Shown here piece after piece: positions 11,158 to 24,055 of a stretch of DNA of 64,000 nt. The position numbers were made by a program, and so were the translations under genes. Below the pieces are notes generated by a model. That model had not been told where the DNA came from. It ran no database searches and saw only the letters and a program-made list of their open reading frames with translations. The stretch is from positions 1,030,032 to 1,094,031 of the forward strand of contig JAQTSV010000001.1 in NCBI GenBank assembly GCA_028711115.1. The letters are read 5' to 3'. This stretch comes from Candidatus Omnitrophota bacterium. GTDB taxonomy: Bacteria > Omnitrophota > Gorgyraeia > Velamenicoccales > JABMQK01. Position 1 is the stretch's first letter, and the number at the start of each line of letters is the position of its first letter.

Positions 11158-12210
11158 TCAATAGCCAATCTCTTTTAAGATGGCCTTTGTATCGGCTTTT
11201 ACGACCTTGGGTTTTTTTATGGATTTTATTGCCCGGTCCGGATCTTTAAGCCCGTGGCCGGTAAGAATACAGACTAATTTTCCAGGATTAACCTTAAAAT
11301 ATTTCTTTTTGGATAATTTAATCACACCTGCCACAGAAGCAGCTGAAGCAGGCTCAACAAACAAACCATCTTTTGCGGCTAATAATTTATAGGCCTCCAA
11401 TATTTCCTTATCCGTAACCATATCAATCAACCCGCCGGATTCATCGCGCGCCTGTTCTGCCTTTTTCCAGCTCGCGGGATTTCCGATTTTAATGGCAGTG
11501 GCGATTGTCTTGGGGTTCTTTATAGGATGTCCCTTGACTATTGGTGCTGCACCTGCCGCCTGGAATCCCAGCATTACCGGAAGTTGTTTTATAATTCCAT
11601 TCTTATGGTATTCCTTATAACCCATCCAATAGGCAGTGATATTTCCTGCGTTACCGACGGGAATGGCATGATAGAACGGCGCTTCGCCAAGAGCATCGCA
11701 AATCTCAAAAGCACCGGTCTTCTGGCCCTGGAGCCTGTAGGGATTTAAAGAATTAACCAGAGTAATCTTGCAGCGGCTGGTAATTTCCTTTACGATATTT
11801 AAAGCATCGTCGAAATTTCCCTTTACGGCTAAAACCTTTGCGCCGTGAATCAATGCCTGTGATAATTTACCCAGAGCAATTGCTCCGTCCGGAATTAAAA
11901 CAATACATTTCATTCCCGCCCTGGCTGCGTAAGCTGCGGCTGAGGCAGAAGTATTTCCGGTAGAGGCGCACATAACAATTCCCGAGCCTTCCTCTTTGGC
12001 CTTGGAAATTGCCATAGTCATTCCTCTGTCCTTAAATGAACCCGTGGGATTGGCGCCTTCGTATTTTAAATAAACTTCCAATCCGGTGATTTTACTTAAG
12101 TATTCACTGAACACCAAAGGAGTATTCCCCTCGTTCAAAGATACTATGGGTGTTCTGTCAGTTACCGGCAGGAATTTTTTATATTTATCTATTACGCCTT
12201 TCCAGTACAT
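11158..12210 (-). CDS. thrC: threonine synthase
   Basis: 350 aa PLP enzyme with [10 protein letters not shown] lysine motif. Confidence 0.93.
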
Positions 12211-12213
12211 CTT

Positions 12214-13494
12214 TTAAAGCTCCTCTCTGTGAATTACTACAGTGTTCTTTTTTACCATTGCCAATTTATCAATCGCCTCCAGCGCGAGCCTTATGTCTTT
12301 TTCTCTGACATCGTGGGTCAGCATTATCACCGGCACCACTTTTGCCCTGCTTCTTTCTTTCTGAGTAACCGAGGCAATACTTATTTTACGTTTAGCCAGA
12401 ATTCCGGAAATCTTGGCCAATACGCCGGGCTTATCTATCACCATAAAACGGATATAATACTTCGACCGTATATCATCCATTCTCTTAATTTTTTTGATTA
12501 ATCCCTTCTGCGAAAAATCAATGGGCCTTTTCTGGCTGGCGATATCGATTAAATCGCTTATGACTGCAGAGGCCGTGGGTAATTGCCCTGCGCCCTGGCC
12601 GAAAAATAACAAATCGCCTACCAATTCACCTTTGATATAAACCGCGTTAAAAATTCCGTTTACGCTTGCCAAAGGATGTTCTTCGGAAATCAAAGTAGGA
12701 TGTACCCTGACTTCCAGAATATCTCCGTCTGACTTCTTGGCGATGGCTAATAACTTGATAACCAATCCCAGCTCTTTGGCGTATTTTATGTCCAGAGGAG
12801 AAATTTCTTCAATTCCTTTTACATAGATATCTTTCTGCAGAATATATTTACCGAATGCCAGAAAAGCCAAAATAGACAGCTTGTGTGCGGAATCAAAACC
12901 TTTTATATCTAAAGAAGGATTGCGTTCGGCAAATCCTCTTTTTTTGGCTTCTGACAATGCCTCAAAGAAAGAACAATCCTGTTCTGCCATTTCGGAAAGA
13001 ATGTAATTGCTGGTGCCGTTTATAATGCCCACCACGCTTTCTATGCGGTCAGCAACCAGTCCTTCCGTAAGAGATTTAATAATAGGTATCCCGCCGCAAA
13101 CAGAAGCCTCAAAACGAAGCTGTGATTTATTTTTGTGGGCCACTGCCAGCATAGAGGACAAATCCTGTGCCAATAACGCCTTGTTCGCGGTAATTACACT
13201 CTTACCGGATTCCAAAGAACGCAAAATTATGTCTTTGGCCGGATTTATCCCGCCGATAAGCTCGATTACCACATCGATATCTTTGCTGTTAACTATATCC
13301 TGATATTTGGTGGTAAAAATCCTGGGGCTTATATTCAGCTTACTCCTCAACTTGGGATTCTTATCACAAATCTTTGCCATATTAAAATCGACATCGTATT
13401 TTTTCTTGAAAGACTTTCTCTTTTGTGAAAGAATCTTTAAAACACCACTGCCGATCGTGCCCAGGCCGATTAATCCTATGTTTATCTTTTTCAT
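12214..13494 (-). CDS. hom: homoserine dehydrogenase
   Basis: 426 aa. GLGTIGSG NAD(P) motif, catalytic domain, and a C-terminal ACT domain. Confidence 0.93.
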   Translation of the reverse strand: MKKINIGLIGLGTIGSGVLKILSQKRKSFKKKYDVDFNMAKICDKNPKLRSKLNISPRIFTTKYQDIVNSKDIDVVIELIGGINPAKDIILRSLESGKSVITANKALLAQDLSSMLAVAHKNKSQLRFEASVCGGIPIIKSLTEGLVADRIESVVGIINGTSNYILSEMAEQDCSFFEALSEAKKRGFAERNPSLDIKGFDSAHKLSILAFLAFGKYILQKDIYVKGIEEISPLDIKYAKELGLVIKLLAIAKKSDGDILEVRVHPTLISEEHPLASVNGIFNAVYIKGELVGDLLFFGQGAGQLPTASAVISDLIDIASQKRPIDFSQKGLIKKIKRMDDIRSKYYIRFMVIDKPGVLAKISGILAKRKISIASVTQKERSRAKVVPVIMLTHDVREKDIRLALEAIDKLAMVKKNTVVIHREEL

Positions 13495-13853
13495 TTTGTT
13501 TCCTTTTTTGAAAAATAATTTACCGTGTTCCTGACGAATTCCTTGGATTGGTCGTCCATATAATTAAACACCAGCCTTGTTTCATAAATCAGATCGTGCG
13601 CAATCTCTTTTGATTCTAAAACCTTTCCTAATAATCTAATGTAACTGGAAATAAAAGGCAATTTAATCTCTATGGCTAAAATTGTGCCGTTATCGAATGC
13701 GCAGTTTGTTGTCAGTAGCATTCCCCCTTCGCTGATATTCTTCGTCTGGGAAATATCTATGTTGTCGGGGTCGCCATAAATCCTATAATTGACTACAAAG
13801 TTTTTATGGACACGCGGATTCCTTCTTCTCTCCGGACCGCCATAAGATACCAA
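13491..13853 (-). CDS. small PilZ-domain protein (c-di-GMP receptor type)
   Basis: RRRNPR (RxxxR) and NISEGGM (N-x-S-x-x-G) motifs. Proposed TTG start at 13853 with AAGGGGG 5 nt upstream. The longer track ORF runs through tRNA-Pro. The stop overlaps the hom ATG (ATGA). Confidence 0.7.
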   Translation of the reverse strand: MVSYGGPERRRNPRVHKNFVVNYRIYGDPDNIDISQTKNISEGGMLLTTNCAFDNGTILAIEIKLPFISSYIRLLGKVLESKEIAHDLIYETRLVFNYMDDQSKEFVRNTVNYFSKKETK

Positions 13854-13942
13854 GATTGCCCCCTTGTTCAAAAGACAATAACTTATGGAACTTAACGAAT
13901 ACAAGTTGCTGCCTGAATTATTCCCGCTGCAAAAATTTATTT

Positions 13943-14021
13943 TGGTCGGGGCGGTCGGACTCGAACCGACGACCCCTTGAACCCCATTCAAGTGCGCTGA
14001 TCCAAACTGCGCCACGCCCCG
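13943..14021 (-). tRNA. tRNA-Pro (anticodon GGG), CCA encoded
   Basis: rc reads CGGGGCGTGGCGCAGTTTGGATCAGCGCACTTGAATGGGGTTCAAGGGGTCGTCGGTTCGAGTCCGACCGCCCCGACCA. Cloverleaf folded by hand; anticodon loop AUGGGGU. Confidence 0.9.
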
Positions 14022-14051
14022 CCATTTAATCTACGCTACGGTAAATTCTAT

Positions 14052-15053
14052 TTATTGCTCTGCCTTTCTTCTCCTTAACATCAAATCCTTCAATGCTTTC
14101 TGAGGTGCTTTATGTTTATATAATACACAATATATCTCTTTTGTGATAGGCATTTCTACATTGTATTTACCTGCCAAGGTATAAGCTGCTTTGGTCGTAG
14201 AAACGCCCTCTGCCACCATCTGCATATCTTTTTCTATATCACTTAATCTCTTTCCCTTTGCTATCTGTTCGCCTACAAATCTATTGCGGGAATATAAACT
14301 TGTGCAAGTCGTTACTAAATCGCCCAAACCGCTTACGCCAAAGAATGTCTCTCTGTTTGCTCCCATAGCCACGCCCAGACGGCTTATTTCCACCAAACCC
14401 CGTGTAAGTAAAGCCGCCTTGGCATTTGTGCCTAATTTCAGCCCGTCGGAAATACCACAGGCCAAAGCAATTATATTTTTAAGGCTGCCTCCCAATTCTA
14501 CGCCTACCACATCGCTATTGGTATAGACGCGGAATTTTTCGTTCATCAATAAATTCTGGAAATAACCGGCTGTGTGGTGATTTTTAGATGCCACCACTGA
14601 AACTGCCGGCATGCCCCTGGCTATCTCCTGAGCTATGTTCGGCCCGGAAAGCACCGCCAAATTAACTCCGCCTAATTCGTCGGTAATAACCTCCGACATC
14701 GTCATAAGACTTTTGTATTCAATTCCTTTTGTAGCGCTTAAGAATAAACGGTCCTTTGTTTTTGTGCCTTTTATCTTTTTCAAGACGCTACGCAAATATT
14801 GTGAAGGAACAGCCAAAATAATAGTCTGAGCACAACATAATGCCTCTTTTAAGTCAGAAGTAATAAATACCTCTTTGGGGATTTTTATTCCTTTTAAGAA
14901 CTTTGAATTTACCCTTTTCTTTTTCAAAGATTCTGTATAATCCCTGAATATCCCCCAGAGGCAGACGTTGTATCCTTTCTTAGATAATAGAATAGACAGA
15001 GTCGTACCCCAACCACCGTCACCTAAAATAGTTATATTTTGTCTTTTCAGCAT
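14052..15053 (-). CDS. gpsA: NAD(P)H-dependent glycerol-3-phosphate dehydrogenase
   Basis: 333 aa with GDGGWGT Rossmann start and GpsA-like sequence throughout. Confidence 0.93.
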   Translation of the reverse strand: MLKRQNITILGDGGWGTTLSILLSKKGYNVCLWGIFRDYTESLKKKRVNSKFLKGIKIPKEVFITSDLKEALCCAQTIILAVPSQYLRSVLKKIKGTKTKDRLFLSATKGIEYKSLMTMSEVITDELGGVNLAVLSGPNIAQEIARGMPAVSVVASKNHHTAGYFQNLLMNEKFRVYTNSDVVGVELGGSLKNIIALACGISDGLKLGTNAKAALLTRGLVEISRLGVAMGANRETFFGVSGLGDLVTTCTSLYSRNRFVGEQIAKGKRLSDIEKDMQMVAEGVSTTKAAYTLAGKYNVEMPITKEIYCVLYKHKAPQKALKDLMLRRRKAEQ

Positions 15054-15163
15054 AATAAAAGGTAAGTTTTTATAGGTCTTTATTTTATAATAAGATAGAA
15101 AGAAATGTCAATGATTATTGGGCGGGAATAACGGAAAGCGATAAAATAGATATTATTGATAAA

Positions 15164-15910
15164 TTAACCTATTTTTATGTTTTTTTTGGTGCGCATCTTG
15201 GCTAATTCCCAGGAATATTCGTATAGATGCAGACCTTTGCTTAATGCTATAATTTCGCCGTCTTCCACTCCGATTTCTTCAGCCATATATTGCTTAACCA
15301 ACTGCAACCCTCCCAGATTTGAAGGAAAGCCGCCCCATAAATCCCAGGAACGAAAATAAAGTATGAAATGCAACTTGCCATTGCGGATTCTTGTATCGAT
15401 TAAACGCAGGCACGGCGGGTCAGCCAAATAAATATCCGAAGGCATTCCTATTTCCATAGTGGCCTGGTTTGTACCAAAGCCTTGCGTCTTATACATCTTA
15501 ATAACCTCTTCCACCTGATTTACATTAAGAGGGATTTCTTTGACCATTTCTTTGCCGTCTTTAGATTCTTTAATTCTGACTTTTGCGTCAACCAATCTCT
15601 CGCCGTAAGTATAATCTTCAGTATTCGTCTTTGTCCCGGTGAGAAGATAACTCAAGTATCCCTGAATATAATCCATATCTGTGGGCGCAGGAATACTCAT
15701 ACCTTCAGGGATTATAGGGATAATCTGATGCCCGGGATTTTTTACGTGCACGCAGGCCAAATCAAATTCCAGGCGCCTCTGGCCCTGGTAACTGCCCCTT
15801 GTGATTTCATAGACCACGCCGTTATCCAGTATAGAACTCAGACACTGGAACCAGGCGTCGTCCAAATCGAAGGCCTCAATAAACACAGGTTTTAGAAATT
15901 TATTCTCCAT
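15164..15910 (-). CDS. thymidylate synthase (ThyA) superfamily protein, divergent/archaeal-like
   Basis: 248 aa. The core aligns by eye with E. coli ThyA: PPC catalytic Cys (ADPPCLRL), FRSWDLWGGFPSN versus YQRSCDVFLGLPFN, LHLYE versus THLYS. Confidence 0.7.
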   Translation of the reverse strand: MENKFLKPVFIEAFDLDDAWFQCLSSILDNGVVYEITRGSYQGQRRLEFDLACVHVKNPGHQIIPIIPEGMSIPAPTDMDYIQGYLSYLLTGTKTNTEDYTYGERLVDAKVRIKESKDGKEMVKEIPLNVNQVEEVIKMYKTQGFGTNQATMEIGMPSDIYLADPPCLRLIDTRIRNGKLHFILYFRSWDLWGGFPSNLGGLQLVKQYMAEEIGVEDGEIIALSKGLHLYEYSWELAKMRTKKNIKIG

Positions 15911-15915
15911 ATTAT

Positions 15916-17157
15916 TTAATGGCTAAAAGAAGTATACACCAAACCTGCCGAAAGTAAAATCATTATAACAATCACAGCCCAGGTGATAATATTATAAATC
16001 GGAGAATTAGTATGCTCACCCATCAGCCGCTTTCTGTTGATTAATAATAACATTAGGATAAGCACAAAGGGAAGTAAAATCCCATTTGCCACCTGGCTTA
16101 TAAGCATAACTTTTACAAAATTTACTCCGGGAATTAAAACTGAGATAGCGCCGATTAATATTATAACCGAATATAACCAGTAGAATTGCGGTGCCTCTCT
16201 GAATTTTTTGTTTACGCCCAATTCCCAGCCCATACCTTCACATACTGTATAGGCCGTAGATAAAGGCAGTATCGACGCCGCAAACAAAGAAGCATTTAAT
16301 AATCCGATAGCGAAAAGTAAATAACAATAATTGCCGGCCAACGGCCTTAAAGACTTGGCTGCATCTGCTGCGGTAGAGATATGGATTCCGTTAACATATA
16401 AAGTTTCCGCGCAGACTATTATAATAAAAATAGCCACTATATTTACAATGAATGCGCCGATAATAACATCCAGACGGTTAAAGGCGTAATCTTTTATTTT
16501 AATCTCCTTTTCCACGACGGCAGCCTGCTGATAAAACTGCATCCACGGAGCAATGGTAGTACCTATCACGCCGATTAACATAAAAAGATACGGGCGGTTA
16601 AATTCGATACTTGGTTTTATAATATTGGTCCCTACTGCCTTCCAGTCCGGAGTAACAATAAAACCGGAAATTATATACGATACATAAAATACACAGGCTG
16701 CTAAAAATACCTTTTCTACGGATTTATAATTCCCTTTTAAAATCAAAAACCACACAAACCATGCGCACAAAGGAACCAGGATGAATTTGTTCATGCCCAA
16801 TAATTCCGCACTTGCGGCAATGCCGGCAAATTCAGCCATGGTATTACCAAAGTTAGCCAAAATCAAAATAATCATGGAATAGAATGTGATCTTTACGCCA
16901 AATTCTTCCCTGATTAAATCGGCTAAACCTTTTCCTGTTACCACAGCCATGCGTGAACACATTTCTTGAATTACTATCAAAGCTATAACGATGGGAATAA
17001 AAGACCACAGCAGCTTATAACCAAAATGCGCACCGCAAACCGAATACGTGGCAATTCCGCCAGCATCATTATCCACATTTGCGGTAATGATTCCCGGACC
17101 CATTATCGCAAAAAATATCAAAATGCTCTTCCAGTATCGTATAAATTTATTTTTCAT
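15916..17157 (-). CDS. Nramp-family transporter with Mg2+-type (NRMT/NrmT-like) metal site
   Basis: Polytopic protein. TM1 GPGIITANVDNDAGGIAT and TM6 IGTTIAPWMQF align gaplessly with MntH DPGN / A..MPH. The track start 17181 is GTG. The ATG at 17157 forms an ATGA overlap with the upstream stop. Confidence 0.85.
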   Translation of the reverse strand: MKNKFIRYWKSILIFFAIMGPGIITANVDNDAGGIATYSVCGAHFGYKLLWSFIPIVIALIVIQEMCSRMAVVTGKGLADLIREEFGVKITFYSMIILILANFGNTMAEFAGIAASAELLGMNKFILVPLCAWFVWFLILKGNYKSVEKVFLAACVFYVSYIISGFIVTPDWKAVGTNIIKPSIEFNRPYLFMLIGVIGTTIAPWMQFYQQAAVVEKEIKIKDYAFNRLDVIIGAFIVNIVAIFIIIVCAETLYVNGIHISTAADAAKSLRPLAGNYCYLLFAIGLLNASLFAASILPLSTAYTVCEGMGWELGVNKKFREAPQFYWLYSVIILIGAISVLIPGVNFVKVMLISQVANGILLPFVLILMLLLINRKRLMGEHTNSPIYNIITWAVIVIMILLSAGLVYTSFSH

Positions 17158-18470
17158 ATCGCAGGATTCTTCTTGCGCCACCTTCGCCAGGCAATGCTGA
17201 TTAAATGATCCAGTATATCGTCTACGGTGATAATCCCCTGAAGTATTTTTTCCTCATTGACCACAGGTATAACATTTATCTTATATTTTTCCATTAGTAC
17301 AGCTATTTCCTTCACACTGTCGGTAGGATATATAAAAATATTATTTCTGAATTTGGCTTTTAAAATATTTTCTTTGGGATCCAAAGAAATAAGCCGGCGC
17401 AAATTTGTCGCACCCAAAAGCTGGCCTTTCTCATCTACAATATACAGATACTGCATCGATTCCGGCTTGGAATCGTCCATTTTAATCATCGCCAAAGCCT
17501 CGCCCACCGTCATCTGCTGCGGCAAGGCAAAAAATTCTGTAGTCATTAAGCCGCCTGCGGATTCGCTCTTGTAGCCAAGAAGCGTGGATAATTTTTTTGC
17601 CTTGGGAGTCTCCATCACAGAAAGCATCTTATTTACGGATTCTTTTGGTAGTTCATCCAACAAATCCACTGCTTTATCAGAAGGCATATTAGAAATTATC
17701 TCCAAAGTTTCCTTATAGGATAAATCATCCAATAAAGACTTCTGTTCTGGAAAATCCAACAAAGAAAAAATTTCGCTTTTAGTATCTAAATCCAGAGTCC
17801 TGAATAAGGCAAGCCTGTGCTTGTGGTCCAGATTCAGCATAATCTCGGAAAGGTCTGCGGGATGGATATCGTTTAATTGTCTCTGCGAAACGTCAACCTT
17901 TATTGTTTTAGATACCGGGTTTATGGAGAGCGGCTGAATATGTTTCCAGGAAATCAACTTTTCTTTATTGAGATAAATTGCCTTTTCATTAAATAATCTG
18001 ACAATAGTGTCTACTATTTTTTCGAAACCTAAGCGCCTTATAAATCCTCTTGCGCCGATATCAACATGCGCCAGCATCAAATCCCTTTCAACTATGAGCA
18101 GATGGATATCATTTACCCTGATAACATTATGATTGGAAATATCCACAACCTGCTGATCCAGGATATCTCTTTTTAAAACGAGTTTCTCCCGGTTGTTTAC
18201 AGGAATATCGAATTTCACTTCCTTAGAAGATAGATTTATCTCTATACTGTGTTTTGTCCTTTCCTTGACTAATCCCCACGGCACAACAGCATAACGCCTA
18301 TTAAATAAACCCTTGGCTATAATTAAATGGGTGGCCTTGGGATAAACCGCAATCTCCGATTGGCCCACAATAACATCGTATAAACTTCCGATATGCTTTT
18401 CTTCTTTGTCCACAACATCTATATTCACTAACTGCGAAAAATATAAAAACATTTTACCGTTTTGATTCAT
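17154..18470 (-). CDS. soluble PRC-barrel + MgtE N-domain + CBS-pair protein (no membrane domain)
   Basis: 438 aa. N-terminal PRC-like repeats, an MgtE_N-like helical region (ADLSEIMLNLDHKHRLALFRTLD...), and a CBS pair. It ends where the MgtE TM domain would begin. Confidence 0.8.
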   Translation of the reverse strand: MNQNGKMFLYFSQLVNIDVVDKEEKHIGSLYDVIVGQSEIAVYPKATHLIIAKGLFNRRYAVVPWGLVKERTKHSIEINLSSKEVKFDIPVNNREKLVLKRDILDQQVVDISNHNVIRVNDIHLLIVERDLMLAHVDIGARGFIRRLGFEKIVDTIVRLFNEKAIYLNKEKLISWKHIQPLSINPVSKTIKVDVSQRQLNDIHPADLSEIMLNLDHKHRLALFRTLDLDTKSEIFSLLDFPEQKSLLDDLSYKETLEIISNMPSDKAVDLLDELPKESVNKMLSVMETPKAKKLSTLLGYKSESAGGLMTTEFFALPQQMTVGEALAMIKMDDSKPESMQYLYIVDEKGQLLGATNLRRLISLDPKENILKAKFRNNIFIYPTDSVKEIAVLMEKYKINVIPVVNEEKILQGIITVDDILDHLISIAWRRWRKKNPAI

Positions 18471-18495
18471 AAATTACCTCAACACAAAAAATTTA

Positions 18496-18566
18496 AGCGG
18501 GAGAAGGGAATCGAACCCTCATATATAGCTTGGAAGGCTATTGTTCTACCATTGAACTACTCCCGC
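18496..18566 (-). tRNA. tRNA-Gly (anticodon TCC), no encoded CCA
   Basis: rc reads GCGGGAGTAGTTCAATGGTAGAACAATAGCCTTCCAAGCTATATATGAGGGTTCGATTCCCTTCTCCCGCT. Anticodon loop CUUCCAA. Confidence 0.9.
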
Positions 18567-18819
18567 ATAAATTTATCTATTGTAGCTTGTCCCGCATGCG
18601 CACTTCGTGCTTTGCGGGATCCCGCCTCGTCACTTAAACTATAAGGCGGGAGAAGGCAAATGCTCTACCAACTGCCCGCCAAAAATCTTGGCGGGTCCGC
18701 TTAATTTTTGGCGGAGATGTCCGCCGATTTTTTGTGGCGGAAGCTACACCCACATAATTTTATTTTATTCACTTTATAGCCTGCCGCCTATGAAGAAGTA
18801 AATTTTTGAAAATTTAAAA
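18567..18819. other. GC-rich multi-hairpin spacer with a tRNA-like remnant between tRNA-Tyr and tRNA-Gly
   Basis: At least 6 GGCGG/CCGCC-type hairpins lie in an otherwise AT-rich context. Bases 18645-18680 (rc GGCGGGCAGTTGGTAGAGCATTTGCCTTCTCCCGCC) carry the D-arm 14-mer CAGTTGGTAGAGCA shared with tRNA-Thr. Confidence 0.4.
18710..18733 (+). terminator. intrinsic-terminator-like hairpin in plus orientation
   Basis: GGCGGA-GATG-TCCGCC followed by GATTTTTT. No annotated plus-strand gene lies upstream. Confidence 0.45.
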
Positions 18820-18902
18820 TGGACAGGAGAGGATTTGAACCTCTGAAGCACAAGTGCAGCAGATTTACAGTCTGCCCCCTTTGGCCACTTGGGTACCTGT
18901 CC
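18820..18902 (-). tRNA. tRNA-Tyr (anticodon GTA), long variable arm
   Basis: rc reads GGACAGGTACCCAAGTGGCCAAAGGGGGCAGACTGTAAATCTGCTGCACTTGTGCTTCAGAGGTTCAAATCCTCTCCTGTCCA. Confidence 0.9.
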
Positions 18903-18916
18903 AAAAATTTTTACAG

Positions 18917-18989
18917 AGCTGGCGGAGGGAGTCGAACCCACGACCTGAGGTTTACAAAACCCCTGCTCTACCAACTGAGCTACGCCAGC
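18917..18989 (-). tRNA. tRNA-Thr (anticodon TGT)
   Basis: rc reads GCTGGCGTAGCTCAGTTGGTAGAGCAGGGGTTTTGTAAACCTCAGGTCGTGGGTTCGACTCCCTCCGCCAGCT. One U-U mismatch in the T stem. Confidence 0.88.
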
Positions 18990-19007
18990 ATAAAATTCTT
19001 AAAAGAG

Positions 19008-19949
19008 CTATTTTTCGGATTTAAACCAATCGACTGTCAATCTTAAACCTGTCTCAAAATCAATCTTAGGTCTATATCCTAATTCCTTCTCTGCTTTTGA
19101 TATATCAGCAAATGTCCTGAGAACATCACCGGCCCGTAGAGGAGTAAAAGCCGGCTTAATGGATTTACCCATAATTTTATTTAAAATTTCGACCAGCTCT
19201 AAGATAGTATGGTCTTTATTGTTGGCGATATTAAAGACATCACACTTTATATTCTGCCTGGTTGCTGCAAGTATATTTGCATCCACTACATTATCTATAT
19301 AAGTGAAATCGCGTGACTGCTTTCCGTCGCCATGAATAGGCGGCTGCCGATTATTCATCATGGCATTAATAAATTTTGGGATCACGACCGAATATTCATC
19401 GTCTAAACTTTGACGCGGGCCATAGACATTAAAATATCTCAAACTCACAGTCTCTAACTTGTAATTTACGCTGAAGATTTTGCAATAATACTCGCCTGCC
19501 AATTTGCTCAGTGCATAAGGAGAAATCAATAGCGGCAGCGAATCTTCCCTTTCGGGAAAAATATCTGTCTCTCCGTATATGGAGCTTGAGGAAGCAAAAA
19601 CAAAGCGTTTAATCCTGTTTTTCAAAGAAGCCTTCAAGAGATTTAGCGTGCCGTTAATATTCACATCGTTATAGCTGTAAGGGTCATTCATTGATTTAGG
19701 CACCGAACGTAAAGCCGCCTGGTGAAAAACACAATCTATATCTTTTGTGGCGCGAAGGCATACTTTATAATCTCTGATGTCACCTTTTATCAGCTGAAAA
19801 TTCTTATTTGCCTTGGCGAATTTTAAATTTTCTTTCCTGCCGCTGGAGAAATTATCTAAAACCTTCACAGAACTGCCTTCTCTGAGCAACCGCTCTGCGA
19901 TATGAGAGCCGATAAATCCTGCGCCGCCAGTTACTAAATATTTAGCCAT
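19008..19949 (-). CDS. NAD-dependent nucleotide-sugar epimerase/dehydratase (extended SDR)
   Basis: 313 aa. TGGAGFIGSH Rossmann motif and YxxxK (YALSKLAGE). Substrate not assignable. Confidence 0.85.
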   Translation of the reverse strand: MAKYLVTGGAGFIGSHIAERLLREGSSVKVLDNFSSGRKENLKFAKANKNFQLIKGDIRDYKVCLRATKDIDCVFHQAALRSVPKSMNDPYSYNDVNINGTLNLLKASLKNRIKRFVFASSSSIYGETDIFPEREDSLPLLISPYALSKLAGEYYCKIFSVNYKLETVSLRYFNVYGPRQSLDDEYSVVIPKFINAMMNNRQPPIHGDGKQSRDFTYIDNVVDANILAATRQNIKCDVFNIANNKDHTILELVEILNKIMGKSIKPAFTPLRAGDVLRTFADISKAEKELGYRPKIDFETGLRLTVDWFKSEK

Positions 19950-19950
19950 A

Positions 19951-20829
19951 TTATTTTATGCTCTTTTTAATAGCCGCTGGTATACAATCGATAATATCTG
20001 AGGCAATAAGCGCCAGCTGAGTCTTTTCCTGTGCCGCCAAATCACCGGCCAAACCGTGCAGATACACACCATATTTTGCCGCGTCAAAACTATTCAATCC
20101 CTGCGCCAGTAATGCCGCAATTATCCCGCTCAATACATCTCCGCAGCCCGCTGTGCTCATTCCGCTGTTGCCGGTTTTATTGACGTATATCGAACCTGCC
20201 GGATCAGCAACTACTGTCTGATATCCTTTTAGAACCACAACCAGATTATATTCTTTGGCAAAATTTCTGGCAACTTCCCTTTTCTTATTCTGGATATTCT
20301 TTGGACTGACATCCAATAACCTTGCCATTTCCCCGGGATGCGGAGTAATAATCCTGAAATCAGTTTTATCCAAGGGCAGGCAAGAAATCCCTACTTTGAA
20401 TTTATCCAAAAATCCCGCCCAGGCATTTATAGCGTCGGCATCTATTAAAGTTTTAACGCGCGATTCAAAGATTGTCTTTCTGATTAATTCCTGTGTCTGG
20501 ATATTCTGCGAAAGTCCCGGGCCAATCAACAAAACATCGGACTTCTCCAGAAATTCCTTAATCTTATCGAAGGCAGTTTTGGACAAAGTTCCGTCGCTGG
20601 TTTCGGCCAAAGGCAACATCATCACTTCAACGGTGTGGCTGGCAACAGCACGGACCAGACTCTCAGGCAAACCCAAAGTGACTAATCCAGCTCCGCAACG
20701 TAACGCCGACTTCGCCGCTAAAATCGCAGCTCCGGTCATTCCCAAAGAACCCGCCAGAATAAAAACATGGCCGAAATCGTTCTTATGCGAATCTTCTTTT
20801 CTTTTATATAACTGCTGTGGCAATTGCAT
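19951..20829 (-). CDS. nnrD: ADP-dependent NAD(P)H-hydrate dehydratase (YjeF C-terminal domain only)
   Basis: 292 aa. SHKNDFGHVFILAGS and GNSGMSTAGCGDVLSG motifs. No N-terminal epimerase domain. Confidence 0.85.
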   Translation of the reverse strand: MQLPQQLYKRKEDSHKNDFGHVFILAGSLGMTGAAILAAKSALRCGAGLVTLGLPESLVRAVASHTVEVMMLPLAETSDGTLSKTAFDKIKEFLEKSDVLLIGPGLSQNIQTQELIRKTIFESRVKTLIDADAINAWAGFLDKFKVGISCLPLDKTDFRIITPHPGEMARLLDVSPKNIQNKKREVARNFAKEYNLVVVLKGYQTVVADPAGSIYVNKTGNSGMSTAGCGDVLSGIIAALLAQGLNSFDAAKYGVYLHGLAGDLAAQEKTQLALIASDIIDCIPAAIKKSIK

Positions 20830-21139
20830 ATTTATCTGTGTGCGCTATGGAAAGATGGATATGATTTTTCTTCCTGTTAATCCTGCAGGAAGGTTTGCCG
20901 AATTTATCATTAATTATCTCTATATCTTTAAATGTTACGGGGCTATTGCCAAATGCCTTGATAATCGCCTCTTTTGCCGCAAATCTGGCAGCCAAGTGCT
21001 GGAAAGGAAAACGTTTCTGCATGGAATAATCTATTTCCTTTTTATTGAATACGCGATTCAGAAAACTATCTCCCCATTTATCAATGGCGCGCTTCAGTCG
21101 CGAAATCTCAACTATGTCTATGCCTATGCCTTTGTTCAT
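20804..21139 (-). CDS. acpS: holo-[acyl-carrier-protein] synthase
   Basis: 111 aa with GIGIDIVEISR start, typical of AcpS. pdxJ-acpS adjacency as in E. coli. Confidence 0.9.
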   Translation of the reverse strand: MNKGIGIDIVEISRLKRAIDKWGDSFLNRVFNKKEIDYSMQKRFPFQHLAARFAAKEAIIKAFGNSPVTFKDIEIINDKFGKPSCRINRKKNHIHLSIAHTDKYAIATAVI

Positions 21140-21858
21140 AACGAATGCAAATCTATAAGCCTTTTCATTTCCCTGACTGCTTTATCCAATCCCACTATTA
21201 CCGCACGGCAGATAATGGAATAACCGATATTTAATTCATTCAGCTGGGGAATTTTGCAAATGGCAATCACATTCTTATAATCCAAGCCGTGGCCTGCGTT
21301 AACGCCCAGGCCTATTTTATGAGCGTGCGAGGCTGCGTCTTTAATAATTGCCAGATTATCCAGCAATTCTTTTTCGTCTTTGCTATTGGCGTATGCTCCT
21401 GTGTGCAATTCAATAAATTCAGCGCCTACGTCTTTAGATGCGTCGATTTGTTTTCTGTCCGGCTCGATAAAAAGACTTACCAGAATATCTTCGCCGTGTA
21501 ATTTTTTCACCACCTCTTTAATTTTACTTTTCAGCGACACCACATCCAAACCGCCTTCTGTGGTAAGCTCCTGTCTTCTTTCCGGGACTAATGTCGCCTG
21601 GTCCGGCGCAACTTTACGGGCAATATCCACAATCTCTTTGTTTATGGACATCTCAAGATTCAACCTTGTCTTTACTGTCTCTGTTAATATAGAAAGGTCT
21701 CTGTCTTTAATGTGGCGGCGGTCTTCCCTTAGATGGACAACTATACCGTCAGCGCCTGCCAATTCACAAATCCCGGCGGCAATAACCGGTTCCGGTTCTC
21801 TTGACTTTCTTAATTCCCTCAGGCTTGCAATGTGATCAATATTTACGCCTAATTTCAT
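21136..21858 (-). CDS. pdxJ: pyridoxine 5'-phosphate synthase
   Basis: 240 aa. LGVNIDHIASLRE start and EFIELHTG motif. Confidence 0.93.
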   Translation of the reverse strand: MKLGVNIDHIASLRELRKSREPEPVIAAGICELAGADGIVVHLREDRRHIKDRDLSILTETVKTRLNLEMSINKEIVDIARKVAPDQATLVPERRQELTTEGGLDVVSLKSKIKEVVKKLHGEDILVSLFIEPDRKQIDASKDVGAEFIELHTGAYANSKDEKELLDNLAIIKDAASHAHKIGLGVNAGHGLDYKNVIAICKIPQLNELNIGYSIICRAVIVGLDKAVREMKRLIDLHSL

Positions 21859-21870
21859 AAACCTTTATCC

Positions 21871-21969
21871 TTATCCGTTTACGTGAAACCAAATCACCAC
21901 AGCCAAGATAAAAGAAATAATCTTAAGAAAAATATTATTTGTAAACCATCTCTTTATTTTATCTATCAT
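21871..21969 (-). pseudogene. 32-codon ORF resembling only the N-terminal membrane anchor of CdaR/YbbR (remnant or micro-protein)
   Basis: The ATG at 21969 lies 2 nt after the cdaA stop. The peptide is MIDKIKRWFTNNIFLKIISFILAVVIWFHVNG*. It matches the typical YbbR-protein N-terminus pattern and sits in the cdaA-cdaR position. No YbbR domains follow. Confidence 0.4.
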
Positions 21970-21971
21970 TA

Positions 21972-22739
21972 CTATGTCTCCTGCCGCAACAGGTTTCTTA
22001 AAGTCCGCGACAATTCTTCCCTGGAGATATCGCTGATGATATGACCCTCTGTAGCCAAAGATATATTGCCTGTTTCCTCTGAAACAATAATTACCACAGC
22101 ATCTGTGTCTTCGGATAAACCCAGCGCTGCCCTGTGCCGCGTTCCATGAGTACGGCTTAACCGCGCATTGTCATCTATGAGAGGAAAAAGGCAACATGCC
22201 GCGGCAATGCGTCCGCCGACAATTACCACGCCGCCATCATGCAGAGGGCTGGAAGGGAAAAATATCGCTTCTAAAATTTCCTCGGAAACCATGGAATCCA
22301 TCTGTACGCCGCTATCAATATAGACCTTCAGAGAATCATCTCTTTCCAGAGCAATCAATGCCCCTATCTTTTTCTCAGAGAAATTCACAGCCGCCTTTTC
22401 CAGCTGCCTGATTAATATTTCTAATTCCTCTGCCTTTAAAAGAGGTGAGGTCAAGAATACCTGCCTGGCACCCAGGCGGGCAAGGCCCTGCCTTAATTCC
22501 GGCTGAAAAATAATAAATATTCCGATTATAGAAATGGCGAATATCTTGGTCATAATCCAATCCAGGGTATGGAATCCCAGTTTCTGGAAAATGAAAAACA
22601 TCACCACCAAGATAATCAGGCCTCTCAATACATTTCTGGCGCGCGTCCTCTCAAAGAAAACCAGCAAATTATAAATAGCATACCACAAAATTGCTATCTC
22701 TAAATAAGGCCTCCAAAGTAATAAGATTTCTTTAATCAT
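21972..22739 (-). CDS. cdaA: diadenylate cyclase (c-di-AMP synthase), membrane-anchored
   Basis: 255 aa. Three N-terminal TM helices plus a DAC domain (DGGVVI, HGTRHRAALG, IIVSEETG). Confidence 0.9.
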   Translation of the reverse strand: MIKEILLLWRPYLEIAILWYAIYNLLVFFERTRARNVLRGLIILVVMFFIFQKLGFHTLDWIMTKIFAISIIGIFIIFQPELRQGLARLGARQVFLTSPLLKAEELEILIRQLEKAAVNFSEKKIGALIALERDDSLKVYIDSGVQMDSMVSEEILEAIFFPSSPLHDGGVVIVGGRIAAACCLFPLIDDNARLSRTHGTRHRAALGLSEDTDAVVIIVSEETGNISLATEGHIISDISREELSRTLRNLLRQET

Positions 22740-22750
22740 AATATATAAAA

Positions 22751-24055
22751 TTAATTTACTATTTTAGATAATGCTGCGTACTTTCTGGAAAAAACCGTTC
22801 TTTTTGTCTCGTCTTTGACTATGGCGTCGCAAACACAGGCAACTTCCTGCATCTGTTTTACATCATGAACCCGCAAAATGTGAGCGCCGTTTTGTATAGA
22901 TAAAGCTATTGCTGCAGCCGTGCCGAATATTCTTCCGTCTGGTTCGGCATTGAGAATCTTTCCCAAAAAAGATTTGCGCGACACGCCTAACAATATGGGT
23001 TTTCCCAATACCTTAAATTCCTTCAGGTTTCTTAAGATTTCTAAATTATGCTCTAATGTTTTACCAAATCCTATACCGGGATCTATAATTATACTATCAC
23101 CGGATATTCCAGAATCAACTGCTAATTCTATTCTCTGGGCCAAAAAAGAAATTACCTCTTCTAATAAGAATTCATATTGGGGGGCTTTTTGCATTGTACG
23201 CGGCGTGCCTTTCATATGCATGATAATTGTGGCCGCACGATACTTTGCTATCAGTTTTCTCATCTTAACATCTTTTAAACCTGTGATATCGTTAATGATG
23301 CTGGCGCCCAAATCCAGGGCGACCTTCGCTACTTCCGGTTTGTAAGTGTCGACCGAAACCGGCAATTTAAATTTCTTCACTAAAATATTCAAACAACAGG
23401 AAATTCTCTTGATCTCTTCTTTTTTGTCTATGGGTTTTGCTCCGGGCCGAGTAGACTCAGCTCCGATGTCAATGATATCGGCCCCGCCTTCTATCATCTG
23501 CTCTGCCTTTTCTAAAACGAGATTCTCCATCCTGTCTTTTGTGGCTTTATCAAATACCTGCCCCAGCAAACCATCGCCGCTGAAAGAATCATCCGTCACA
23601 TTGATTATCCCCATAATCAGAGTTTTCCTGTCGGTATTTAAAACATAATTCCTGCATTTAATCAAAAATTTATCTTTTTTATAATTAGTTACGGACTTTG
23701 CCAAATCCTTTCCTATATTAGCTAACCCGAAAGGCTGCCTGTTTAATTTCTCAATCAATCTTTTCAGTTGTACAAAATTACCTATCAATAAACAGTCGGT
23801 ATTTTTATCCCTGCCTGTTATGGACTGGCGGCTTATAGCCACATCGCCGCCCAAAGAGAGCATTTCCTGTTTCAAGATATTGGCGGCAATGGAAGATACG
23901 TCCGCAATCTTAATCAAGAAAGAATCTGCCTTGGGAGACATTATCTTAATGCCATATTCATCTACTTTGATATCTCGTAATTGACGGTCTAAATTTGATT
24001 GATTATTAAAAGAAAGGATACGGGCAAGCATCTCTGACTTAATTGGAATTTTCAC
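22751..24055 (-). CDS. folP: dihydropteroate synthase with ~145-aa N-terminal extension
   Basis: The pterin-binding domain starts at MGIINVTDDSFSGDG. The N-terminal domain carries ANILKQEMLSLGG, which I recall from long FolP forms in other anaerobes. The track start is GTG, so the start is uncertain. Confidence 0.88.
   Translation of the reverse strand: MKIPIKSEMLARILSFNNQSNLDRQLRDIKVDEYGIKIMSPKADSFLIKIADVSSIAANILKQEMLSLGGDVAISRQSITGRDKNTDCLLIGNFVQLKRLIEKLNRQPFGLANIGKDLAKSVTNYKKDKFLIKCRNYVLNTDRKTLIMGIINVTDDSFSGDGLLGQVFDKATKDRMENLVLEKAEQMIEGGADIIDIGAESTRPGAKPIDKKEEIKRISCCLNILVKKFKLPVSVDTYKPEVAKVALDLGASIINDITGLKDVKMRKLIAKYRAATIIMHMKGTPRTMQKAPQYEFLLEEVISFLAQRIELAVDSGISGDSIIIDPGIGFGKTLEHNLEILRNLKEFKVLGKPILLGVSRKSFLGKILNAEPDGRIFGTAAAIALSIQNGAHILRVHDVKQMQEVACVCDAIVKDETKRTVFSRKYAALSKIVN

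Follow-up and report, generated by a model that had tools for sequence, protein, structure and literature searches.

Gene arrangement at the locus

The stretch of DNA analysed here, referred to as the window, comprises 64,000 nucleotides from a Candidatus Omnitrophota bacterium (assembly GCA_028711115.1, contig JAQTSV010000001.1, positions 1,030,032 to 1,094,031 of the forward strand). On its minus strand lie two overlapping genes, one for a soluble protein that resembles the cytosolic part of the MgtE channel, which we call the partner, and one for a transporter of the Nramp family that we assign to the Nramp-related Mg2+ transporters (NRMT). The 438-residue product of the partner gene (17154..18470), which lacks a membrane domain and ends in ...ISIAWRRWRKKNPAI*, is built from two PRC barrels (PRC1 and PRC2), an MgtE_N domain and a CBS pair, followed by a basic C-terminal tail. 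The NRMT gene (15916..17157, minus strand) encodes 413 residues from its ATG and matches Pfam Nramp. Both proteins are 100% identical to NCBI proteins from a Ca. Omnitrophica metagenome-assembled genome (MAG).

The TGA of the partner gene and the ATG of the NRMT gene, with three bases in common, meet in an ATGA at 17154..17157 (minus strand), as a first-pass annotation of the sequence had proposed. A Shine-Dalgarno-like GAGGT (18476..18480, minus strand), likewise read from the sequence, precedes the partner ATG by 5 nt, and inspection of the sequence before the NRMT ATG revealed no motif comparable to it. The overlap and the lack of a separate NRMT Shine-Dalgarno motif suggest that the two proteins are made together, and the arrangement is consistent with translational coupling. 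A longer reading frame starting from a GTG at 17181 finds no support among homologues of the transporter. Since these are 409-417 residues long and the identical NCBI protein (P0121) has 413, the ATG at 17157 is taken as the real start.

The transporter has the metal site of an NRMT

The transporter matches Pfam Nramp (PF01566) with an E-value of 2.6e-104 over profile positions 1-356 of 357. Its best match among all PDB sequences is EleNRMT from Eggerthella lenta (7QIA, 2e-107; 43% full-length identity), and in the same comparison the Deinococcus MntH DraNramp reached 6e-30 and the plant aluminium transporter NRAT (8ONT) 9e-12. NRMTs are defined by a DxxG-TxxA/T signature (Ramanadane et al. 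2022, PMC8806188). Here, transmembrane helix 1 (TM1) carries the metal-site motif D31-A-G-G34 (DxxG; 17056..17067, minus strand) and TM6 carries T200-T-I-A203-P-W205 (TxxA, with the α-6b histidine replaced by tryptophan; 16543..16560, minus strand). According to HMMER alignments, D-A-G-G is shared with EleNRMT while MntH has D-P-G-N, and TTIAPW is likewise that of EleNRMT while MntH has A-T-V-M-P-H. This bears out both the by-eye alignment of the first-pass annotation and its view that a D-G-T-A site is the mark of an NRMT.

The remaining site residues follow the same pattern. Both proton-pathway histidines of α-6b are gone, the first being W205, as in EleNRMT, and the second a glutamine where EleNRMT has asparagine. 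E109 and Q355, which correspond to Glu133 and Gln379 in EleNRMT, are invariant in the transporter alignment, so that the α-3 Glu and the α-10 Gln are kept. EleNRMT, whose structures are deposited as PDB 7QIA, 7QIC, 7QJI and 7QJJ (Ramanadane et al. 2022, eLife), transports Mg2+ and Mn2+ without coupling, has Trp and Asn in place of the α-6b histidines and loses Mg2+ transport upon the T224A mutation (PMC8806188). The assignment to the NRMT clade rests on the E-value contrasts and the site motifs, and by all these sequence criteria the transporter is an NRMT. It is a LeuT-fold carrier of the Nramp superfamily with a metal site widened for hydrated Mg2+, and by homology with EleNRMT it is expected to import Mg2+, and also Mn2+, without proton coupling. 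Judged from sequence, the identities given here to the transporter and, below, to its partner are very probably correct.

Domain architecture of the partner

The partner begins with a PRC barrel (PRC1, residues 8-79; 18234..18449, minus strand) that stays just under the Pfam cut-off. Against Pfam PRC (PF05239), residues 9-79 score 17.4 bits when the whole protein is searched and 21.0 bits with the N-terminal half, the cut-off being 21.2; many partner homologues exceed it. The second barrel (PRC2, residues 93-200; 17871..18194, minus strand), which contains an insertion of ~24 residues, has no Pfam match and was recognized by profile-profile alignment to PRC1. An hhalign comparison of residues 6-92 with 93-200 returned the repeat with 93% probability and an E-value of 3e-7. 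It is followed by the helical MgtE_N domain (residues 202-302; 17565..17867, minus strand; PF03448, E 3.9e-24) and a CBS pair (residues 303-425; 17196..17564, minus strand; PF00571 in two stretches, E 4e-17). PRC-like repeats, MgtE_N and CBS pair had all been predicted by the first-pass annotation.

Among 13 family sequences from different phyla, PRC2 is the most conserved stretch, with D105, Q107, D110, R118, D121, D137, G139, G142, R145, R146 and W175 invariant in all 13. Used as a lone query against 1.84 billion cluster representatives, PRC2 retrieved 626 proteins at E<=1e-3; most of the best 150 of these have the partner architecture of ~420-450 residues and the remainder are mainly shorter. 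With the partner itself, more than 1600 homologues were found at E<1e-10, of which the best 120 are nearly all 420-450 residues long. In a Spirochaetota MAG (survey locus L005, 4654-5870) the partner matches are spread over three reading frames, which probably reflects indel errors of a long-read assembly and not a true pseudogene.

The protein closes with a basic tail, SIAWRRWRKKNPAI (17157..17195, minus strand), in place of the acidic plug helix of MgtE. Its net charge is at least +2 in 95 of 128 family members, and 32 of the 128 contain an [ASTQ]W[KR] motif. An MgtE pore is missing, as had been noted from the sequence. The NCBIfam mgtE model (TIGR00400) aligns only over positions 16-255 of 450, with 175 bits against a cut-off of 233, and PF01769, the pore of five transmembrane helices, has no match in the partner. 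A hidden pore or a frameshift was likewise rejected; none of the frames of the 64-kb window encodes an MgtE transmembrane domain. Given the missing PF01769, the partial TIGR00400 match and the lack of pore-like sequence in the window, the partner is not an MgtE channel.

Structural comparison leads to the same relatives. Among solved structures, the closest are the cytosolic domains of MgtE (8GPV, 1e-32; 2YVY, 5e-32), and the alignment stops where the plug helix starts. The AlphaFold2 model of the partner has a mean predicted local distance difference test (pLDDT) of 70.9 and a predicted template modelling score of 0.36, with linkers below 50. It is β-rich in the PRC1 region (residues 8-78; 10-residue block mean pLDDT 63-89) and places a helix at residues 416-434; the PRC2 region is poor, with a pLDDT <50 for most of 91-196. 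A Foldseek search with this model gave the same MgtE cytosolic structures as top matches and recovered only those and CBS pairs. The cytosolic domain of Thermus thermophilus MgtE (TtMgtE; PDB 2YVY, 2YVX, 5X9G) shares MgtE_N and the CBS pair with the partner at about 30-33% identity (E 5e-32). The partner differs from it by lacking the plug helix and the pore of five transmembrane helices, by its two additional N-terminal PRC barrels and by the basic tail. Weaker fold matches were obtained to CorB/CorC/CNNM structures. In these proteins a cytosolic CBS pair couples the binding of Mg2+ or Mg-ATP to a divalent-cation pathway. The pair is, however, joined covalently to a DUF21 membrane domain, MgtE_N and PRC domains are absent, and the transporter family is unrelated.

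The same module occurs in full-length MgtE channels

In a survey of partner loci from metagenomes, described below, four of the six loci without an Nramp gene encode proteins of 631-670 residues that combine PRC, MgtE_N, CBS and the MgtE membrane domain (L114:3665-5614, L125:3974-5986, L139:3980-5959 and L159:2076-3971). These full-length channels contain the tandem PRC with the PRC2 motif DxQxxD...RxND...GxxRRLG...W, followed by MgtE_N and CBS domains. They differ from the free partner in that an acidic plug helix and the pore begin exactly where the partner stops, and in that no Nramp gene follows them. The existence of full-length relatives with the same module indicates that the partner comprises everything that a PRC-type MgtE channel has on its cytosolic side, and that the PRC module does not serve as an adaptor for NRMT alone. 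No treatment of such a PRC-type subclass of MgtE was found in the searchable literature, a 2025 preprint on the classification of MgtE architectures among it, and no searchable paper combines 'PRC-barrel' and 'MgtE'.

The gene pair recurs across phyla

In order to assess how widespread the pairing is, we searched for the NRMT site pattern in genomes sampled at one per species and retained the 80 best loci, of which 76 were assessable, four having too little upstream sequence. The loci derive from Omnitrophota, Planctomycetota, Spirochaetota, Syntrophales and other deltaproteobacteria, Aminicenantes, Zixibacteria and Nitrospirota, and further from Acidobacteriota, Firmicutes, Armatimonadota, Binatia and one bin labelled archaeon. 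Of the 76, 66 from at least ten phyla have a partner gene immediately before the NRMT gene and in the same orientation; 64 of these have a partner homologue and two the C-terminal end of a partner at the contig edge. The intergenic distance has a median of 30 nt and equals -4 nt, as in the window, in 9 of 64 loci. Acidobacteriota pairs (L015, L017, L028, L044, L046, L050, L059, L076) have longer spacers of 180-265 nt, reaching ~2.4 kb in some related loci. No Rfam family was detected in the two acidobacterial spacers scanned (L015, L046).

The reverse survey took the partner as its starting point. Here, in 67 of the 73 assessable loci (92%) the next gene downstream, on the same strand, is an Nramp. 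TM1 of these transporters reads DxxG in 66 of 67, and TM6 begins with Thr, followed by A/T/S at the Met and W/Y at the His position, in 61 of the 62 that were readable; the canonical Asn/Met/His site occurs in none of the 67. Thus the recurrence of the partner beside D-G-type Nramps, which the first-pass annotation had suggested surveying, is borne out from both sides. Site combinations among the downstream transporters (L095-L158) were DGTAW, DGTTW, DGTTY and DGTSY. The Ser/Tyr variant, which falls outside the published DxxG-TxxA/T definition, may represent a separate subclade, possibly the 'outgroup' of Cellier. Finally, the identity matrices of partner and NRMT correlate with a Mantel r of 0.89, a value reached in 0 of 999 permutations, which indicates co-inheritance, not contact.

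The pairing, which the first-pass annotation described as a two-gene chimera, is not new. Shin et al. (2014, PLoS Genet) named the transporters NrmT, reported that most genes of the clade adjoin a homologue of the MgtE cytoplasmic domain and called the arrangement 'mgtE-nramp operons', many of which have M-box riboswitches (PMC4072509). Their operons from Clostridium acetobutylicum (Ca_c0685) and Acidobacterium capsulatum (Acp2976/Acp2977) show the same order of partner and then Nramp as the window. In contrast, the window has a tRNA cluster upstream where many of the operons have an M-box, its partner is a single 438-residue gene where that of C. acetobutylicum is split, and its clade has a weakly acidic MgtE_N. 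The same authors refer to a 'small' MgtE fragment and do not use the term 'PRC', whereas the partner in the window carries a tandem PRC. The A. capsulatum transporter favoured Mn2+ (PMC4072509). No study of the partner after 2014 was found in the searchable literature, which omits most subscription journals, and the partner is not mentioned in the EleNRMT paper, the 2025 MgtE classification preprint, a 2026 review of Mg2+ transporters or a 2022 paper on Nramp evolution. In the EleNRMT paper the words 'CBS', 'operon' and 'accessory' do not appear, and MgtE is cited solely as an example of an unrelated transporter.

Overall, on sequence grounds the locus is the Omnitrophota copy of the known and widespread mgtE-nramp operon. 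What appears to be new are the tandem PRC module that holds the most conserved motif of the family, the full-length PRC-MgtE channels with the same module in cis, and the loss of most MgtE_N acidity and of key ATP contacts in this clade.

Metal and nucleotide ligands

To judge whether the partner could still sense Mg2+, we aligned it to TtMgtE and took the roles of the sites from PMC5882242 and PMC5529423. The ligands of Mg4 (D91 and D247 of TtMgtE, here D265 and D418), of Mg6 (D95, here D269 and Asp in 59 of 60 family members) and of Mg7 (E59, here E233) are kept. At Mg5, D250 is kept as D421 and D226 is lost, being replaced by K397. Ligands of Mg2 and Mg3 are missing, as these sit in the plug helix of MgtE, which is absent here. 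Of the ATP contacts, Y170 (Y341) and R187 (R358) persist and the main-chain contact V207 shows a conservative change to I378, whereas D188, N203 and F227 are replaced by R359, F374 and I398, respectively. In TtMgtE, F227A abolishes ATP binding (PMC5882242, PMC5529423). The nucleotide part of the Mg2+/nucleotide sensing proposed by the first-pass annotation is therefore weak.

The domains are also unusually low in charge. MgtE_N has a net charge of -5, compared with a median of -23.5 for 128 family members, and the CBS pair has -5 compared with -11. A low-charge MgtE_N (about -9 to +1) is found in the window (17565-17867) and in L001-L003, L006-L008 and L081-L089. The C-terminus in this Omnitrophota/Planctomycetota clade nearly always reads ...[IF]AWR[RK]..., and together with the low MgtE_N charge this common end suggests a functionally shifted subfamily.

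Upstream leader and neighboring genes

Upstream of the partner lies a cluster of tRNA-Thr(UGU), tRNA-Tyr(GUA) and tRNA-Gly(UCC) at 18496-18989 (minus strand), the last of which (18496..18566, minus strand; ARAGORN, Rfam) leaves 25 nt to the partner start. No promoter- or terminator-like site was found between cluster and partner, in scans that were uninformative in that the numbers of sites did not exceed those in shuffled sequence. Because no such site intervenes, the tRNAs and the pair may share a transcript. Two partner-less NRMT loci (L031, L048) likewise have a tRNA shortly before the transporter gene.

The cluster stands where some relatives have an M-box leader. An Rfam scan of positions 12000-24000 gave no match at E<=1 to the M-box (RF00380) or another riboswitch before the pair. 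In 2 of 11 sampled partner-containing loci, from Pelotalea chapellei and a Firmicutes bin, an M-box aptamer of 131-133 bits precedes the partner gene (L068:4433-4598, L070:4435-4605) and there controls partner and NRMT jointly. We also considered whether partner-less NRMT loci use an M-box instead; none of the nine scanned has one, and the idea was rejected.

Downstream of the pair, an open reading frame of 248 residues (15164-15910, minus strand) starts 5 nt past the NRMT stop. It has a partial, weak match to thymidylate synthase (PF00303, E 2e-10, profile positions 107-223 of 266), and its product may be a divergent ThyA-like enzyme from the same transcription unit as the pair. Further on, a PilZ-domain reading frame (13491-14015, minus strand; 174 residues from a GTG) overlaps a tRNA-Pro (13943-14021), and its true start probably lies further downstream.

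A proposed brake on NRMT and its alternatives

From these data we propose that the partner would act on the transporter as its equivalent domain acts on the MgtE pore. The partner would dimerise through its CBS pairs, as MgtE does, and the dimer would dock on the cytoplasmic face of the NRMT carrier, with the PRC2 insertion and the basic C-terminal helix as candidate contact elements. Once docked, it would slow or block import at high cytosolic Mg2+ and would thereby supply an uncoupled, potential-driven importer with the feedback brake that is built into MgtE. For a link to Mg2+ speak the kept ligands of the inter-domain sites Mg4, Mg6 and Mg7 (E233, D265, D269, D418) and the M-box upstream of the partner in L068 and L070. 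As the operon in the window has no M-box, feedback, if any, would have to act at the protein level. Feedback regulation by the cytoplasmic fragment was already one of the two speculations of Shin et al. (PMC4072509), the other being a chaperone.

Several observations weigh against this proposal. Contact between partner and NRMT is so far hypothetical, and PRC2, the region that would matter most for docking, is modelled at low confidence. One Mg5 ligand is lost and the ATP contacts are poorly conserved, and the Omnitrophota/Planctomycetota clade has shed most of the negative MgtE_N charge that underlies the electrostatic clamp of MgtE. Ten of the 76 NRMT loci, mostly from Terriglobia, have no partner directly upstream, and nine of them have none within 6 kb. 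Natural fusions of partner and Nramp occur in none of 144 loci, and none was identified among the best 150 PRC2 matches, where two longer proteins have 525 and 595 residues. Orphan partners exist in L117 (1608-2894 and 2958-4175), where the next gene encodes a HisKA_2/HWE-type histidine kinase, and in L157 (4001-5248), with neither an Nramp nor an MgtE pore nearby. In addition, the NrmT transporters of C. acetobutylicum function without the fragment, and in the only published test co-expression of Acp2976 and Acp2977 from A. capsulatum left Mg2+ rescue unchanged (PMC4072509).

Considering both sides, we put the probability that the whole account is right, the identities and the trans-gating mechanism taken jointly, at about 0.5. 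For the single step that the partner restrains NRMT in trans under high Mg2+, a claim drawn from sequence comparison, we see slightly less than even odds. We hold more tentatively still the broader idea of a detachable gating subunit, in which one sensor closes MgtE in cis and controls the LeuT-fold NRMT in trans via PRC2 and the basic helix, and in which the Omnitrophota/Planctomycetota module may have another set-point or sense something other than bulk Mg2+.

The partner might instead be a cytosolic chaperone, buffer or hand-off factor for Mg2+ or Mn2+ that does no gating. This alternative offered by Shin et al. 2014 agrees with the very acidic MgtE_N of most members (median -23.5), which could bind many cations, and with the findings that NrmT transport needs no partner and that co-expression had no effect (PMC4072509). 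In the window, however, the MgtE_N is only weakly acidic (-5) and would make a poor buffer. What is kept are the specific Mg4, Mg6 and Mg7 sites that drive the conformational change of MgtE, not general surface acidity, and conservation peaks in the basic PRC2 insertion, not in the acidic domain. Free cellular Mg2+ is millimolar, which makes a chaperone hard to justify. We consider this role unlikely.

Just as improbable in our view is a constitutive structural or assembly subunit that serves the stability, oligomerisation or localisation of NRMT and does no sensing, at least in the low-charge clade. Such a role would fit the loss of most acidity and of some Mg and ATP ligands in this clade, the strong co-inheritance of the pair, and the gene overlap without a separate Shine-Dalgarno motif, which suggests synthesis in fixed proportion. 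The structural work on EleNRMT also reportedly needed thermostabilising mutations. Nevertheless, E233, D265, D269 and D418 have been kept over a long divergence, which suggests that metal binding still matters, and heterologous NrmTs function without a partner (PMC4072509). The ten NRMT loci without a partner directly upstream likewise speak against an obligatory subunit.

Less likely again is a general signalling protein for Mg2+ or energy state that has other targets and is merely co-expressed with NRMT. CBS-pair proteins often regulate diverse partners, for example DarB and AcuB, and PRC barrels are generic interaction modules. The orphans fit this idea, one beside a histidine kinase and the other with no transporter nearby. 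Set against it, 92% of the assessable partner genes directly precede an NRMT-type gene and most of the exceptions have an MgtE pore in cis, so that the module is almost always on a Mg2+ pathway. Finally, the possibility that the partner is a decayed MgtE, that is a truncated pseudogene or a gene whose pore is hidden by a frameshift or assembly error, is suggested by a stop codon placed where the plug helix of MgtE would begin and is refuted to a vanishing remainder by conservation: the architecture of 412-450 residues recurs with an intact frame in more than 120 loci across phyla, the base right after the partner stop already belongs to the NRMT gene, and the tail is a conserved basic motif and not random read-through.

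NRMTs are an uncoupled entry route for Mg2+, and the conserved MgtE-like partner is the obvious candidate for a brake against overload. To the known operons the window adds a compact, riboswitch-free example and no new principle; the pointers it provides are the PRC2 motif, the basic tail and the low-charge clade. If trans-gating is true, a single sensor module would govern two unrelated pore architectures, which would be of interest both for the regulation of transporters and for how many uncultured phyla maintain their Mg2+ homeostasis.

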